Assembly (NCBI RefSeq): GCF_003018255.1
Contig: NZ_CP027440.1
Length of the DNA: 64,000 bases
Source of the DNA: Escherichia coli
GTDB lineage: Bacteria > Pseudomonadota > Gammaproteobacteria > Enterobacterales > Enterobacteriaceae
Direction: 5' to 3' (one strand)
This document shows positions 2,657-57,646 of this stretch, one piece after another. Position 1 is the first letter of the stretch, and each line of letters opens with the position of its first letter. The notes beneath the pieces are model-generated. The model was given only the letters and a program-made list of their open reading frames with translations. It was not told the DNA's origin and ran no database searches. Position numbers and translations under genes: made by a program.

Positions 2657-3376
2657 TTACAGGCCAATCGCCTCTTTTAAGCTTTTCAGATAACGACGGC
2701 TGACCGGCACGGTTAAGCCATTACGCAAAATCAACTCGGCCTGGCCGTTATCTTCCAGACGAATCTCCTGTAAATGCGCGAGGTTAACCAGATACTGACG
2801 ATGGCAGCGTAGTAGTGGTGTACGACTCTCCAGGGTACGTAATGTCAGTTCGGTAAAGCCCTCTTTCCCTTCGTGACTGGTAACGTAGACACCGCTCATC
2901 CGACTGCTGACAAATGCCACATCTTTCATTTGCAGCAAATAAATCCGACTATGCCCCGTACAAGGGATAAATTTCAGCGCCTGTTGATTTTCCGGTAACA
3001 ACGAAACATCCTGCTTGCTGCGCTCCAGACGCAATCGCGCCAGCGTTTTCTCCAGTCGCGCTTCATCAATTGGCTTCAGCAGATAATCAAAGGCATGTTC
3101 TTCAAAGGCTTTAATGGCGTATTCATCAAACGCGGTGAGAAAAACAATATACGGACGATGTTCCGGGTCGAGCATCCCCACCATTTCCAGACCACTGATG
3201 CGCGGCATCTGGATATCGAGGAACAGCACATCCGGGCGCAGTTTATGCACCGCGCCGATCCCTTCCACGGCGTTTGAACACTCACCAACGATTTCAATAT
3301 CGCTCTGCTCCTGCAAAAATACGCGCAGGTTCTCCCGTGCTAACGGTTCATCATCGACAATTAAGACTTTAATCAT
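2657..3376 (-). CDS. btsR: LytTR-family response regulator BtsR (YehT)
   Basis: receiver domain ([16 protein letters not shown]) plus C-terminal LytTR domain; ATGA start/stop overlap with btsS. Confidence 0.92.
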
Positions 3377-5058
3377 GCCTCGTCCCTCCATGGTAGTCGT
3401 AACGTTATTCGGGTGTAACAATCAGGCTCACAGGCGACGCTTATCCCATAGTCATCGCCAAACCGTTCACGTAAACGCTTATCCACCAGATTCATCCCCA
3501 GCCCACTGGCATTGGTTACCGGTTGATACAAACCGGCATTGTCTTCGATCTCCAGCATCAAATGTTGCCCCTCACGTCGGGCGCTGATTGCCACTCGCCC
3601 TGTATCCAGCAGTTGTGATGTCCCATGTTTAATGGCGTTTTCCACTATCGGTTGCAGGGTAAACGCGGGCAATTGCTGCTGGGATAATTCTTGCGGAATA
3701 GCAATGTTGACCTGCAACCGCGACTGGAAGCGCGCCTTTTCAATTTGCAGATAAGCGTTCACATGTTCAATTTCGTCTGCGAGAGTAACAAACTCCGAAG
3801 GCCGCTTTAAGTTTTTGCGGAAAAAAGTGGAAAGATACTGGACCAGCTGGCTGGCCTGTTCGCTGTCGCGGCGGATCACCGCTTTAATGGTGTTAAGCGC
3901 ATTAAACAAAAAATGGGGGTTCACCTGGGCGTGAAGCAGTTTGATCTCTGACTGGGTGAGCATCGCTTTTTGCCGCTCATATTGCCCGGCGAGGATCTGC
4001 GCCGAAAGCAGTTGCGCAATCCCCTCGCCCAGCGTGCGGTTGATTGAACTGAATAAACGGTTTTTGGCTTCATACAATTTGATGGTGCCCATCACCCGCT
4101 GATTTTCGCCACGCAACGGAATGACCAGCGTCGACCCCAGTTTGCATTGCGGATGCAAAGAGCAACGATAAGGTACTTCGTTGCCATCAGCGTAGACCAC
4201 TTCACCGGTTTCAATCGCTTTTAAGGTGTAAGTCGAAGAAATCGGTTTGCCGGGTAAATGGTGGTCGTCACCAATTCCGGTAAAGGCCAGCAATTTCTCT
4301 CGATCGGTAATCGCGACTGCACCAATATCCAGCTCCTGATACAGCACCTGTGCCACTTTCATGCTGTTCACTTCGTTAAACCCCTGGCGCAAAATGCCTT
4401 CCGTCGAGGCAGCCACTTTTAGCGCAGTGGCAGAAAAAGCCGAAGTGTATTTTTCAAACATCGCGCGTTTATCGAGCAATATACGCATAAACAGCGCCGC
4501 GCCGACGGTATTGGTAACCATCATTGGCGCAGCAATATTACTCACCAGACGCACCGCATCTTCATAAGGTCGGGCGATCGCCAGGATGATCAACATTTGC
4601 ACCATTTCAGCGACGAACGTGACGGCACCGGCGGTAATGGGGTTAAAGACTTTATCAGTGCGCCCGCGACGGATCAGGATGCTGTGTACCAGGCCGCCGA
4701 GCAACCCTTCAACGATGGTCGAGATCATGCAACTTAGCGCGGTCATGCCCCCCATCGAATATCGATGTAACCCGCCGGTCAGACCAACCAGCCCACCGAC
4801 GACCGGACCGCCGAGTAAGCCGCCCATTACCGCGCCTATCGCACGGGTATTGGCAATAGAATCGTCAATGTGCAACCCAAACCAGGTGCCCATGATGCAG
4901 AAGATGGAAAAAACGATGTAGCAGAGAAATTTATGCGGCAGACGAACCGTGACCTGCATTAACGGTATGAATAATGGCGTTTTACTCATTAACCACGCAA
5001 TGACTAAAAAAACGCACATCTGCTGAAGCAGCAGCAACACCAGATTAAAATCGTACAT
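3373..5058 (-). CDS. btsS: LytS-type sensor histidine kinase BtsS (YehU)
   Basis: 561-aa ORF, N-terminal multi-TM 5TMR-LYT region, GAF and His-kinase domains; start ATG 5058 (MYDFNLV), track GTG 5073 rejected. Confidence 0.92.
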
Positions 5059-9895: not shown

Positions 9896-10038
9896 GATGC
9901 TTTCCTCATTCTTTTACTGTTGTTTTCAGCGAATTAAGAGAAAAGCATAGTTGATAATGGCGGAGTTAGCCTGAGCGGACGGATTCAGTTGCAGAATCAG
10001 ATAAATACTTAAAAGGCATATTTTGCCCGGCGTTTCTT

Positions 10039-10072
<34 letters not shown>

Positions 10073-28191: not shown

Positions 28192-30187
<1,996 letters not shown>

Positions 30188-53664: not shown

Positions 53665-54602
53665 TAACCCGCGAGACGCTGGTATTCTTTGGCTATTTCA
53701 CTCGCCAGGATGGCGTTGTTGAACACCAGCTGGATGTTGGATTTCAGGCTGTCACCGCCGGTCAACTCAGCAACGCGCGCCAGCAGGAATGGCGTACTTT
53801 CTTTACCAATAACACCCTGCGCTTCAGCTTCAGCTACCGCCTGATCGATCGCCGCATTGATAGTGTGTTCCGGCATAGCAAACTGTTCCGGAATCGGGTT
53901 CGCTACCACGAGGCCACCGTTCAGCCCGCTTTGCCATTTCACCGCCATTGCACGGGCAATTTCGCTGGCGCTGTCGAGACGAATGCTCACGTCAAACGGG
54001 CTGGTGCGGCAGAAAAACGCAGGCAGCGCTTTGGTCTGATAGCCAATTAGCGGTACACCGAAAGTTTCTAAATATTCGGTAGTTAAGCCTAAATCGAGAA
54101 TAGATTTCGCCCCGGCACAAACGACGGTGACATTGGTGTGCGCCAGTTCTTGCAAATCGGCAGAAATATCGAAGGTATGTTCCGCCCCGCGATGCACACC
54201 ACCAATTCCCCCGGTGGCAAATACTTTAATTCCGGCAAGCGCCGCAATAATCATCGTTGAAGCAACGGTGGTTGCACCATTTTTTCCGGCGGCAACAACA
54301 AAAGGTAAATCGCGACGACTAACTTTGGTCACGTTATGCCCTTCACGACCCAGCAATTCAATTTCTTCTTTGCTTAAACCCACTTTCATCACGCCGCCAA
54401 TAATGGCGATAGTGGCAGGTACAGCGCCCTGTTTACGAATAGTTTCTTCAACTTCAATTGCGGTCTGGGCATTTTGTGGGAACGGCATCCCGTGAGAAAT
54501 AATGGTCGATTCCAGCGCCACAACCGGTTTTTTGTTTTTTAAAGCGTCCTGCACTTCCGGGGAAATTTGTAATAATTCAGGGGAAATTTTTAATTCAGAC
54601 AT
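53664..54602 (-). CDS. psuG: pseudouridine-5-prime-phosphate glycosidase PsuG (YeiN)
   Basis: 312-aa ORF, IndA/PsuG family; overlaps psuK stop. Confidence 0.92.
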   Translation of the reverse strand: MSELKISPELLQISPEVQDALKNKKPVVALESTIISHGMPFPQNAQTAIEVEETIRKQGAVPATIAIIGGVMKVGLSKEEIELLGREGHNVTKVSRRDLPFVVAAGKNGATTVASTMIIAALAGIKVFATGGIGGVHRGAEHTFDISADLQELAHTNVTVVCAGAKSILDLGLTTEYLETFGVPLIGYQTKALPAFFCRTSPFDVSIRLDSASEIARAMAVKWQSGLNGGLVVANPIPEQFAMPEHTINAAIDQAVAEAEAQGVIGKESTPFLLARVAELTGGDSLKSNIQLVFNNAILASEIAKEYQRLAG

Positions 54603-55531
54603 TCTGCGTTCTCCACTAACGATATAACGTTGGCAATCGATAAATCGGGGTTATTGGTGTATTCACAGGAGAGCGCCATTGACGAACATCCCTGTGCGAA
54701 ACGAACAGATTCGGCAAACGGCATTCCGTCTACCCAACACGAAGCAAGTCCCGCCATCATGGCATCGCCCGCTCCGGTAACATTAATGACATTGGTTTTG
54801 ATCGGCGCAGACCAACCACTTTCACCGCTGATATCACTGTAATAAACGCCGTCGCCGCCCATGCTCAATACCAGTCGGTTCAGGCCATGTTGATGGAACC
54901 AGGCAGCAACTTTTGCCACATCTTCACGCCCTGACAAAGCAATCCCACTCAGGGTTTCCGCTTCAAGGCGGTTTGGCTTGAGAGTGTGGATTTGATTTAG
55001 ACGGTCGCGCACTTTGACACATTTCCACGCGGAAACAGGATCGACAAATACGGGTACGTTGGCGGCATTATCCAGAATCCATGCCAGTGCCTCTTCACTG
55101 ATATTACAGTCCGCGACAATGACCTTTGCCCTCTGAATAAATTCACCGTGCTGTGCGAGATATTCAGCTGTAATAGCGTTGCTAATATTCATGTCATTTA
55201 TAGCAACCAGCATTTCACCGGTATTATCGAGTAATGATAAATAGCTCGACGTATTTTCTCCCGGCACAATCAGGCATTTATCGACATAAACACCAGATTG
55301 ATTGGTTTGCGTTAGCAGCGATTGACCATAAAAATCACTGCCTACGGCGCTCAGTAGCCAGGCTTTATTCCCCAGCAACGCCAGGTTTTGTGCAATATTG
55401 CGCCCTACTCCACCAGGCGTAAACTTTATTTTACCTGGATTTGAATCCGCATAATTTAATGATTCATGTGAATATCCGGCGACATCAATATTCGCCGAAC
55501 CTATAATTACGACATAATCCTTTTCGCGCAT
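54590..55531 (-). CDS. psuK: pseudouridine kinase PsuK (YeiC), PfkB family
   Basis: 313-aa ORF with ribokinase-like motifs (GGVGRNIAQN, GAGDAMMAG). Confidence 0.9.
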   Translation of the reverse strand: MREKDYVVIIGSANIDVAGYSHESLNYADSNPGKIKFTPGGVGRNIAQNLALLGNKAWLLSAVGSDFYGQSLLTQTNQSGVYVDKCLIVPGENTSSYLSLLDNTGEMLVAINDMNISNAITAEYLAQHGEFIQRAKVIVADCNISEEALAWILDNAANVPVFVDPVSAWKCVKVRDRLNQIHTLKPNRLEAETLSGIALSGREDVAKVAAWFHQHGLNRLVLSMGGDGVYYSDISGESGWSAPIKTNVINVTGAGDAMMAGLASCWVDGMPFAESVRFAQGCSSMALSCEYTNNPDLSIANVISLVENAECLN

Positions 55532-55598
55532 AGCACGTCCTCTGGTAAAAAATTACCAACCCTGTCAATCCACAAGAATATAGATACTGCAAAGACGG

Positions 55599-55634
55599 TT
55601 TAAACATGTGTTCATATTTAAACATGTGCTCATA
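55599..55634. promoter_or_regulatory. tandem 18-bp direct repeat upstream of psuK (candidate regulator-binding site)
   Basis: TTTAAACATGTGTTCATA immediately followed by TTTAAACATGTGCTCATA, then an inverted partial copy (GCATGTTTTAC); 70-100 bp upstream of psuK ATG. Confidence 0.35.
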
Positions 55635-55771
55635 GTATGCATGTTTTACGTAAAGTAAATTACCGCCAGAGATGCAAAATGGGCAGATTTGAGCAGGCTC
55701 ACAAAACGCGATTAAATGCCTGAATTATAAAAACGGGGAATTTGTGACGGAATGCACAGAACAGGAACACT

Positions 55772-55797
55772 AAAAAAGGGCAGAAATTAATCTGCCC
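55772..55797 (-). terminator. rho-independent terminator about 160 nt downstream of fruA
   Basis: minus-strand hairpin GGGCAG-N8-CUGCCC followed by U6 run. Confidence 0.6.
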
Positions 55798-55916
55798 TTG
55801 AGGAAATAACCTTAGTGTTTGATGAAAGTTTCAGGTTTCCACTAAAAGATAAAACCATTTAAATTCATAAAATTACATTCACAAACCGGTCATTCTCTTT
55901 GCGCGCATCAAATGTT

Positions 55917-55941
55917 CCAGGGCAGGAAATTTCTGCCCTGG
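55917..55941 (-). terminator. hairpin immediately downstream of fruA stop (weak terminator or RNA stability element)
   Basis: 9-bp stem CCAGGGCAG/CTGCCCTGG with 7-nt loop; only a short U tract follows on the minus strand. Confidence 0.4.
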
Positions 55942-55954
55942 AACACACCTTTTA

Positions 55955-57646
55955 TTACGCTGCTTTTGCTACTGCGTCCACTTCCGGACGTTTCAGGAAG
56001 GCATAGGCCAGACCCGCCACCAGCGTACCGGCAATAATGGCTACCAGGTAACCCAGTACCGGCGTAATAGCGCCAGGGATCAGCAGAACAAACAGACCAC
56101 CGTGCGGTGCCATCAGTTTCGCACCAATCGCCATTGAGATTGCGCCAGTCAGCGCCCCACCAACGATACAACACGGCAGCACACGCATCGGATCACGAGC
56201 AGCAAACGGAATTGCACCTTCCGAAATAAAGCACAGACCAAGAACCAGAGCGGCTTTGCCACCTTCCTGCTGCGCTTTGTCGAATTTGCGACGCGCCACC
56301 ATTGTTGCCAGACCCATTGCCAGCGGTGGCACCATACCTGCCGCCATAATCGCCGCCATCGGGCCATAGGTTTGAGTACTCAGCAGACCCACACCGAATG
56401 CGTACGCTGCTTTATTTACCGGACCGCCCATGTCAGTACACATCATGCCACCGAGGATCGCCCCCAGCAGAACCGCATTCGCAGTCCCCATGGTCTGCAG
56501 CCAGTGAGTCAACCCTTCGAGAATGCCAGCAACCGGTTTACCGATCAGGTAGATCATCGCCAGACCGACCACCAGACTGGAAATTAGCGGAATGATCAGG
56601 ATCGGTTTCAGCGCCTCCATACTCTGTGGCAGTTTCAGTTGCGTACTGATTAACTTCGCAATGTAACCAGCCAGGAAGCCCGCAATAATACCCCCAATGA
56701 AGCCAGAACCGGTGCTGACCGCCAGCATACCCCCAATCAGACCCGGCGTGAGACCCGGACGATCGGCAATGGAGAAGGCAATGTAACCTGCCAGTACCGG
56801 CACCATCAGCGCAAAGGCTGAACCACCACCAATCTGCATCAGCGCCGCTGCCAACGTACCCGGCTCTTTAAACGCTTCGATACCAAAAGCAAAAGAAAGC
56901 GCGATACACAGACCACCTGCAACGACCATCGGCAGCATGTAAGAGACGCCCGTCAGCAAGTGACGGTAAGCGCCTGCACCCTCTTTCTTACCTTCAGTGG
57001 TCGCTGTTTGAGCTTTGCCCGCCGGTTCATACGGCGTTGCTTCAGCAACCGCTTTATCCAGTTCCTGCGCGGTTTTCTTCAGCGCCAGACCGGTAGAGGT
57101 GCGATACATCGGTTTACCAGCAAATTTCGCCAGATCCACTTCGATATCTGCCGCCACAATCACCAGATCCGCTGCGGCTACTTCTTCAGGGGTGATCGCA
57201 TTACCCGCGCCAACAGAACCACGGGTTTCAACTTTCACCCACCAGCCACGTTTTTTCGCTTCGGTTTCAATGGCTTCAGCCGCCATAAATGTGTGTGCTA
57301 CGCCAGTCGGGCAAGCTGTCACCGCAACTACGCGTTTCGGACCGCTGGTGGCAACTGGTGCTGTCGCAGCGACCGGTGCAGTGTAAGGTTTCGCATGGCC
57401 TTTGGCTTCACTCAGGAACAGCTCAGGGTGCGCAACTGCCCGGGAAATATCGCCCAGCCAGACATTTTTACCGTTCAGCGCGCTGTCGTTCGGGATGGAA
57501 TCACCGAGAACAATCGCCATTTCAGCGTCGTTCGGATTGTCGATGATTTCCAGTTTTGCTTTTCGCGCCGCCGCGCCCAGCAGGGTCTTCGCCATATAGG
57601 CGCGTGCCTGACCGAGATTAGCGTCAATAATCAGCAGCGTTTTCAT
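55955..57646 (-). CDS. fruA: PTS fructose-specific EIIB-prime-BC component FruA
   Basis: 563-aa ORF with duplicated IIB domain (VTACPTGVAHT) and IIC membrane domain. Confidence 0.95.
   Translation of the reverse strand: MKTLLIIDANLGQARAYMAKTLLGAAARKAKLEIIDNPNDAEMAIVLGDSIPNDSALNGKNVWLGDISRAVAHPELFLSEAKGHAKPYTAPVAATAPVATSGPKRVVAVTACPTGVAHTFMAAEAIETEAKKRGWWVKVETRGSVGAGNAITPEEVAAADLVIVAADIEVDLAKFAGKPMYRTSTGLALKKTAQELDKAVAEATPYEPAGKAQTATTEGKKEGAGAYRHLLTGVSYMLPMVVAGGLCIALSFAFGIEAFKEPGTLAAALMQIGGGSAFALMVPVLAGYIAFSIADRPGLTPGLIGGMLAVSTGSGFIGGIIAGFLAGYIAKLISTQLKLPQSMEALKPILIIPLISSLVVGLAMIYLIGKPVAGILEGLTHWLQTMGTANAVLLGAILGGMMCTDMGGPVNKAAYAFGVGLLSTQTYGPMAAIMAAGMVPPLAMGLATMVARRKFDKAQQEGGKAALVLGLCFISEGAIPFAARDPMRVLPCCIVGGALTGAISMAIGAKLMAPHGGLFVLLIPGAITPVLGYLVAIIAGTLVAGLAYAFLKRPEVDAVAKAA

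Follow-up and report, generated by a model that had tools for sequence, protein, structure and literature searches.

Two copies of one terminator stem downstream of fruA in Escherichia coli: a conserved distal terminator, a stop-proximal hairpin without a conserved U tract and an unconstrained spacer

The 3′ end of the fruBKA operon of E. coli raises the question of why two stable hairpins follow one another between the last gene of the operon and the next gene. In the window that we analysed, a 64,000-nt stretch of the E. coli chromosome, fruA occupies positions 55955–57646 on the minus strand as the last gene of fruBKA and ends in tandem TAA TAA stops (55952–55957, minus strand), which are evident from the sequence and from the annotation of identical DNA. 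The psuK gene (54590–55531, minus strand) lies downstream of fruA across an intergenic region of 423 bp. Nothing is annotated between the two genes in NC_000913.3, which lists no ncRNA here, or in a PGAP-annotated genome that is identical over the region. A sequence-only reading of the window had pointed to a weak hairpin just past the fruA stop, which we call H1, and to a canonical terminator further downstream, which we call H2, and had suggested that such a layout might mark a small RNA derived from the 3′ UTR, a stabilising element or two-step termination.

Both hairpins are indeed present on the minus strand where that reading had placed them. The 196-nt interval that contains them has a folding energy of −67.2 kcal/mol, compared with −41 ± 4.6 kcal/mol in shuffled sequences (z = −5.7, 0 of 200 shuffles). 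The number of terminator-like sites in the surrounding 2.5 kb is unremarkable (five, compared with 2.8 ± 2.0 in shuffles), and the reality of H1 and H2 rests on their stability and conservation and not on the count of such sites. The two stems are spaced 112 nt apart (55800–55911), and the fruBKA 3′ UTR, taken as the stretch between the stop codon and the U6 tract of H2, measures about 180 nt. Among 5426 complete E. coli genomes the two-hairpin layout is found in 5424, in one of two allelic forms. Type A, the form of the window, accounts for 4230 genomes (78%), and type B, which is common to E. albertii, accounts for 1194 (22%). The comparisons within type A described below are based on 16 distinct alleles, including three divergent ones recovered from metagenomes.

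The distal hairpin, H2 (55776–55799, minus strand), is defined by its fold, by the conservation of its pairs and by orthology. Its arms, AAGGGCAGA and UCUGCCCUU, form nine pairs, five of them G–C, around the 6-nt loop UUAAUU (−14.9 kcal/mol), a stem of the kind expected of an intrinsic terminator (5–14 bp, GC-rich, with a loop of 3–8 nt). Directly 3′ of the stem, where such a terminator should have at least 5–6 U residues, is a U6 tract (55772–55777, minus strand; T score 3.6–4.6), two residues of which (55776–55777) can pair with AA at the base of the stem (55798–55799). All nine pairs are retained in each of the 16 type-A alleles, the U tract is invariant across the same alleles, and the T scores of 3.6–5.1 fall within the range of 3.6–5.6 spanned by H2 and the outgroup terminators together. 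By all sequence tests applied for intrinsic terminators, H2 qualifies as one. The Term-seq supplements that we searched contained no entries for fruA or psuK.

The stop-proximal hairpin, H1 (55912–55946, minus strand), is supported by its fold, its conservation and the self-comparison of its arms. The 9-bp core described earlier, CAGGGCAG/CUGCCCUG (55917–55941), proved to be correct, but the stem actually extends through a 5-bp outer extension to 14 pairs in the window allele. The GC-rich stem closes a short loop of 7 nt (AAAUUUC), has a predicted energy of −25.7 kcal/mol and begins 8 nt past the fruA TAATAA. The segment that follows, UUGAUG (55906–55911, minus strand), is a weak tail. With three U residues in the first 8 nt past the 14-bp stem, the T score (of the d'Aubenton-Carafa type) is 1.97; it rises to 2.68, with four U residues, if the stem is counted one pair shorter, and is 0 in type B. 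The tail is also unconserved, being UGGAUG in many E. coli, GUUGAUG (CCGUUGAUG) in the metagenome allele L103 and ACAAACGC, without any U, in type B. As judged by T score and by this variation, no U tract of the kind that characterizes intrinsic terminators is found directly 3′ of H1. The arrangement that the sequence-only reading described, with a weak hairpin first and a strong terminator after it, is real; T scores are 1.97–2.68 for H1 and 3.6–5.1 for H2.

The H1 core of 9–10 bp is invariant, altered on one side only or compensated in all 16 type-A alleles, while the neighbouring bases vary. One core pair covaries across these alleles (AU in ten, CG in two, GU in two and UG in one). The outer pairs are broken in up to ten of the 16 alleles. 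From this pattern, selection appears to have kept the H1 stem but not its tail. We also note that on the plus strand the complement of H1 (55912–55946) runs into CACCUUUUAU and was scored as terminator-like, with 15 pairs; in this orientation H1 could stop antisense transcription entering fruA, although the T run is absent from the type-B allele.

The relationship between the two hairpins becomes clear when other genera are considered. One genome per GTDB species was scanned with the FruA C-terminus, which yielded 80 loci, 75 of them outside Escherichia. A stem of the GGGCAG type was detected in about 35 of these 75 loci, as a single copy in all of them, and the remainder have other downstream sequence. 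The outgroup stem takes the form GGGCAGAG–loop–CTCTGCCC followed by T5–T8, and in nearly all cases is located 18–31 nt past the stop codon. Carriers of the single copy include Citrobacter, Klebsiella, Leclercia, some Enterobacter, Salmonella diarizonae, Atlantibacter and Pseudescherichia. Two copies occur only in Escherichia (E. coli, E. whittamii, Escherichia sp. E1V33 and E. albertii), with one at +19 lacking a U tract (H1) and the other at +160 or +190 having one (H2); the variant H2 of E1V33 was recognised in alignments and not by pattern match. Where psuK follows fruA, the gap between the genes is 414–458 nt in Escherichia, compared with 281–331 nt in the outgroups. Arm by arm, H1 and H2 form direct repeats with a period of 141–142 nt. 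The DNA 3′ of H2 aligns with the post-terminator DNA of the outgroups Citrobacter and Enterobacter soli with scores of 50–54, compared with 21 ± 4 for shuffled sequences (0 of 500). Because the 3′ flank of H2 aligns with that of the outgroup terminator, H2 is the orthologue of the one terminator that follows fruA in Citrobacter, Klebsiella, Leclercia and Enterobacter. H1 is a paralogue of this stem, either brought in by an insertion of about 140 nt that is specific to Escherichia or generated by it. Since H1 and H2 are paralogous copies of one ancestral terminator, the two-hairpin layout is explained without recourse to any small RNA.

The details of this event allow more than one history. A tandem duplication of the terminator together with its downstream DNA is not supported, since the spacer resembles neither the DNA that follows H2 nor the post-terminator DNA of the outgroups. 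H1 and H2 share an allele-specific loop sequence in type A and again in type B. The data are compatible with a single duplication followed by conversion between the copies, and equally with two separate events.

In type B the stop-proximal hairpin H1′ (UCAUCAUCGGGGC...GCCCCGAUGAUGA, −27 to −29 kcal/mol, no U in the tail) is followed by a true BIME, consisting of a Y-REP, a linker and a Z-REP, and then by H2′ with T5. The Z-type REP differs by one mismatch from the REP at window positions 10038–10065. Global alignment against shuffles revealed no detectable homology between the type-A spacer and the BIME spacer of type B (z = −0.6 to 1.2). In both types the upstream stem has lost its U tract and has been extended toward the stop codon. 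Across both types H1 has an energy of −17 to −29 kcal/mol and starts 7–8 nt past the stop, compared with −14.6 to −21 kcal/mol and 13–21 nt for the outgroup terminator hairpin. The flanks that lengthen the stem are unrelated between the alleles, being TGTTCCA/TGGAACA in one and TCATCATC/GATGATGA in the other. Selection for a long H1 stem is nevertheless not proven, as most alleles have mismatches in the outer pairs of H1, and a template-switch mutation at a quasi-palindrome could lengthen the stem neutrally.

The fruA–psuK intergenic region (55532–55970) is dimorphic overall, with the two types about two-thirds identical by eye. The divergent tract reaches the 3′ end of fruA (...AKNA*) and psuK, which has 88% amino-acid identity. 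The dimorphism represents either an ancient polymorphism or introgression. In one type-B strain, Z1323CEC0015 (L003, locus 3090–4032), psuK is annotated as a frameshifted pseudogene. As to REP units elsewhere in the window, canonical units occur on the minus strand at 10038–10065 (GGATAAGGCGTTTACGCCGCATCCGGCA) and, as a variant with two mismatches, at 29083–29110; the former is located some 15 nt past a TAA that apparently ends an upstream ORF.

The spacer of type A (55800–55911, minus strand) is AT-rich, Escherichia-specific and present in a single copy in E. coli. When the window was compared segment by segment with three other Escherichia species, the spacer showed 66–80% identity and H1 overall showed 76–85%, with the third-codon positions of fruA and psuK at 77–83%. 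The corresponding values are 93–97% for H2 with its U tract and 88–95% for the psuK promoter and leader. On these figures the spacer evolves at about the synonymous-site, that is neutral, rate. It is also tolerant of gross change. An IS1 sits inside the type-A spacer, between H1 and H2, in E. coli strain 203740 (L089, locus 2680–3377), and in Escherichia sp. MOD1-EC7003 (L004) a deletion that runs from the spacer (about 115 nt past the fruA stop) into psuG has removed H2, psuK and the start of psuG, so that only H1 is left downstream of fruBKA. Folded by itself, the spacer is no more stable than shuffled sequences (z = −0.36), no promoter-like site was found on the minus strand in 55800–55960, and a search of Rfam 15 gave no match above the gathering score (the best scored 10–19 bits, compared with gathering scores of 43–398, and permissive E-values returned only noise). 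The 3′-UTR small RNA that the sequence-only reading had entertained finds no support as a conserved function, given a spacer that is neutral, is replaced in 1194 of the 5426 genomes and carries no promoter-like site, Rfam match or annotation.

Several other candidate elements in the spacer were considered and rejected. No REP pattern occurs inside 55740–55970; in the window, Z-type matches are found only at 10038 and 29083 and Y-type matches nowhere. The linker TGTAATTTTATGAATTT resembles the L motif of BIMEs by eye, but the alignment is at the level of shuffles, and the type-A spacer does not qualify as a decayed BIME. A multi-copy mobile element or MITE is contradicted by the single copy in E. 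coli and by the lack of a phage match; matches of the spacer in the plasmid collection were confined to records which, from their size, are apparently E. coli chromosomes under a wrong label. A conserved helix suggested by RNAalifold (columns 63–76 with 145–160, nine sequences) had three compensatory cells, a number matched by eight of 500 shuffles. After the metagenome alleles L092, L103 and L106 had been added, its covariation was reached by 36–197 of 500 shuffles and the inner pairs of the helix broke. A small ORF of nine codons in the spacer (MRAKRMTGL) is cut to four codons in E. whittamii.

The sequence-only reading had proposed Hfq data sets as a check on the small-RNA interpretation, and an RNA from the intergenic region is in fact present in them. 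The Hfq RIL-seq data of Bar et al. (2021; PMC8175672, Table S1) for MG1655 contain a node named 'fruA.psuK.IGR', in stationary phase only, with 42 chimeric fragments, a single partner and a U-tract feature of 6. Its SIC is −1, indicating that it is never the second RNA in a chimera, and its sRNA score is 0.00103, compared with a threshold of 0.1 (PMC8175672). The features of the partner (60 interactions, SIC 0.969744) match RprA exactly. Because it is never second in a chimera and has so low a score, the fruA.psuK.IGR RNA behaves as a target and not as an sRNA in RIL-seq. In a TRIC-seq preprint, psuK is among the RprA targets shared with RIL-seq. The '5′psuK' element of that study (2259297–2259678) is an algorithmic split of the gap and not a mapped UTR, and it covers the spacer and H2. 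In the exponential-phase data of the same RIL-seq table (PMC8175672, Table S1) the fruA coding sequence is represented by 11 chimeric fragments with one partner, whose features (136 interactions, SIC 0.990997) match CyaR. Another paper reports that fruBKA is down-regulated in a RyhB-dependent manner and that fruA is predicted as a target by CopraRNA (PMC8896160). We found no literature linking fruA, psuK or yeiC to a 3′-UTR sRNA.

To which part of the gap the RIL-seq node corresponds depends on how the label was assigned. We assume that the RILseq package assigns estimated UTRs of 100 nt, in which case 'IGR' would be K-12 2259397–2259618 (window ∼55632–55854). H2 and the 3′-terminal half of the spacer fall within this presumed zone, which lies upstream of the conserved psuK promoter-like element. 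Of the RprA sites predicted there in K-12, the best is CACUCAGGUUAUUUCC, 16 nt directly 5′ of H2, which pairs with RprA nucleotides 35–50 as 6 + 8 bp (−21.9 kcal/mol). That energy is reached by 2.3% of random 30-nt windows, for which the background mean is −14.1 kcal/mol. A site at the psuK ribosome-binding site scores −22.7 kcal/mol with RprA, and pairing energetics do not serve as a discriminator, as the spacer site and the ribosome-binding site are not separable in this way. At the corresponding position of the window (55802–55817, minus strand), the allele CACUAAGG (the K-12 counterpart is also written CACUCAGG) breaks the 8-bp run, and the energy of −15.1 kcal/mol is at background level. 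In other Escherichia the energy of the site is −8 to −19 kcal/mol. The C that completes the 8-bp run, scored in the K-12 40-mer, is present in 913 of the 5426 genomes. A contact with RprA, if it is real and located here, would be target-like and lineage-specific and would not represent a conserved sRNA.

In our view, the account that best combines these observations, and one to which we attach somewhat better than even confidence, is that H2 ends fruBKA transcription and insulates psuKGT, while H1 is read through and serves as a second barrier to exonucleases, and the spacer is filler. The ancestor would have had a single Rho-independent terminator about 20 nt past the fruA stop. An insertion or duplication of about 140 nt in the Escherichia lineage would then have produced two copies of the stem. 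H2 would have retained the U tract and the ancestral 3′ flank and would act as the working terminator, which also insulates psuKGT. H1 would have lost its U tract, and for this reason RNA polymerase would mostly read through it. Termination at H2 and read-through at H1 are in this sense predictions from sequence rules. H1 would also have been extended toward the stop codon to give a very stable stem that starts 8 nt after it. Because such a stem stands just beyond the footprint of a terminating ribosome, we infer that H1 is most plausibly a second barrier to 3′-to-5′ exonucleases, one that would shield the coding sequence of fruA after a breach of H2 or of the AU-rich spacer, and at most a leaky terminator. 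The spacer itself would be unconstrained filler. Of the interpretations offered by the sequence-only reading, H1 as a stabilising element or as a leaky first terminator remains reasonable, and it is the conserved 3′-UTR sRNA that we do not retain.

Three other explanations, none of them mutually exclusive with parts of this account, have to be weighed against it. H1 and the spacer might be functionless leftovers of the insertion or duplication, with H2 alone being of consequence. The neutral divergence of the spacer, its tolerance of replacement, IS1 insertion and deletion, and the frequent breakage of the outer H1 pairs are all as expected for such a relic, but the H1 core has been kept invariant or compensated in all 16 type-A alleles despite varying neighbours, and the independent extension of H1 by unrelated flanks in both types would be unexpected for a decaying element unless template switching were responsible; we consider this possible but rather unlikely. 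It is less probable still that H1 is a moderately efficient intrinsic terminator, with H2 as a second stop that intercepts read-through and keeps psuKGT insulated. Many operons end in tandem terminators, for example T1–T2 of rrnB. In the window allele, all 14 base pairs of the H1 stem are intact and UUUGAUG comes next (four U in eight if the stem ends at A), and with such a stem and UUUG, H1 could terminate a substantial fraction of transcripts. What tells against such two-step termination is that the U-rich tail is not maintained from allele to allele, as in the UGGAUG, L103 and type-B forms, and that the H1 T score is far below those of H2 and the outgroup terminators.

We think it quite improbable that the interval gives rise to an Hfq-binding RNA or sponge derived from the 3′ UTR, for which RNase E would cut the AU-rich spacer and free a fragment with H2 and U6 that binds Hfq and pairs with RprA, or with mRNAs, by way of the bases immediately 5′ to H2. 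H2 does carry the hairpin-plus-U6 module used by Hfq-dependent sRNAs, with a terminator and U tail of the appropriate kind. The 42 RIL-seq chimeras with RprA as the sole partner (longest U run near the segments, 6), the listing of psuK in TRIC-seq as an RprA target common to RIL-seq, and the K-12 site 5′ of H2 as the best in the IGR-labelled part all speak for it. Set against these are the behaviour of the RNA in the interactome (never second, one partner, a score of about 0.001), the ease with which random windows and the psuK ribosome-binding site attain a similar pairing energy, the restriction of the key C to a minority of genomes with the window site at background, the lack of a conserved seed or constraint in a spacer that is replaced in 22% of E. 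coli, and the want of a promoter-like site or Rfam match. The version of the idea limited to K-12-like strains, in which the distal fruBKA 3′ UTR (the 5′ flank of H2, H2 and U6) is an Hfq-bound RNA that pairs with RprA, seems to us just as improbable. If it were true, RprA, an sRNA of envelope stress and stationary phase, would be linked to the fate of the fructose-PTS mRNA or be titrated by it, and the pairing site would have been made by a single lineage-specific substitution in neutral 3′-UTR filler, a de novo contact in a UTR with a duplicated terminator. More generally, the Hfq-bound intergenic RNA ligated to RprA in K-12 may mean that part of the UTR has a lineage-specific regulatory contact.

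The arms of H1 and H2 also allow alternative pairings, in which the 5′ arm of H1 (55928–55939) pairs with the 3′ arm of H2 (55777–55788) over 12 perfect base pairs and the 3′ arm of H1 (55916–55925) pairs with the 5′ arm of H2 (55792–55801) over 10 nt at 90%. The resulting four-segment topology is like that of an attenuator but was judged to be energetically disfavoured. A rough estimate gives H1 together with H2 (about −40 kcal/mol) an advantage of some 10 kcal/mol, H1 starts just out of reach of a ribosome at the stop codon, and we reject a switch of this type.

We note in addition a conserved promoter-like element, TTTACT-16-TACTAT, at 55632–55659 on the minus strand, followed by GAGCACATGTTTAAATATGAACACATGTTTAAA (55599–55631). 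The stretch 55599–55659 is 100% identical to K-12, and in Citrobacter, Klebsiella and Leclercia it takes the form of a palindrome, GAACACATGTTT-N6-AAACATGTGCTC. This stretch probably represents the promoter of psuKGT together with an operator at which a regulator would bind.

Taken as a whole, the fruA 3′ interval is ordinary apart from a modest evolutionary curiosity, namely a terminator duplication combined with an allelic dimorphism. The main value of the analysis is for annotation: H2 should be regarded as the operon terminator by orthology, and H1 should be scored neither as a terminator in its own right nor as the boundary of an sRNA. Of modest evolutionary interest are the duplication of a terminator stem by an Escherichia-specific insertion and the existence of two deeply diverged alleles at 78% and 22%. 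Should the RprA contact map to the fruBKA 3′ UTR, it would provide an example of opportunistic sRNA pairing sites arising in unconstrained UTR sequence.

Comparison with known systems places the two hairpins in different categories. The interval resembles the 3′-UTR Hfq sRNAs and sponges CpxQ, SroC, PspH and SdhX in having a terminator shared with the mRNA, a U6 tail, AU-rich sequence upstream and, in K-12, ligation to RprA. It differs from them in having no conserved seed, in never being second in a chimera, in its single partner and score of about 0.001, and in a spacer that is replaced in 22% of strains, with a candidate pairing site that is lineage-specific. PspH, too, initially appeared under an IGR label with one sRNA as its sole partner (PMC5145812). 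With the Rho-independent terminators of enterobacterial operons, H2 shares a GC-rich stem of 7–9 bp, a 6-nt loop, U6 and a position directly behind the final gene of the operon. H1 shares the stem alone; lacking a conserved U tract, it is not a canonical member of this class.

The stem-loops of REP/BIME elements, for example that of malE–malF, are mRNA stabilisers in 3′ UTRs and intercistronic regions. By analogy H1, a stable hairpin without a U tract just past the coding sequence, would stand where PNPase and RNase II would be blocked, and the type-B allele has a true BIME with two REPs between H1 and H2. The window allele differs in having no REP, and its H1, a putative stabiliser, derives from a terminator stem. 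Finally, the arrangement of two serial hairpins past the stop codon is like that of tandem terminators such as rrnB T1–T2 and of hairpin clusters at operon ends (PMC8355165); the fruA pair differs from these in that its hairpins are paralogous copies of one stem, with the U tract on the distal one only.
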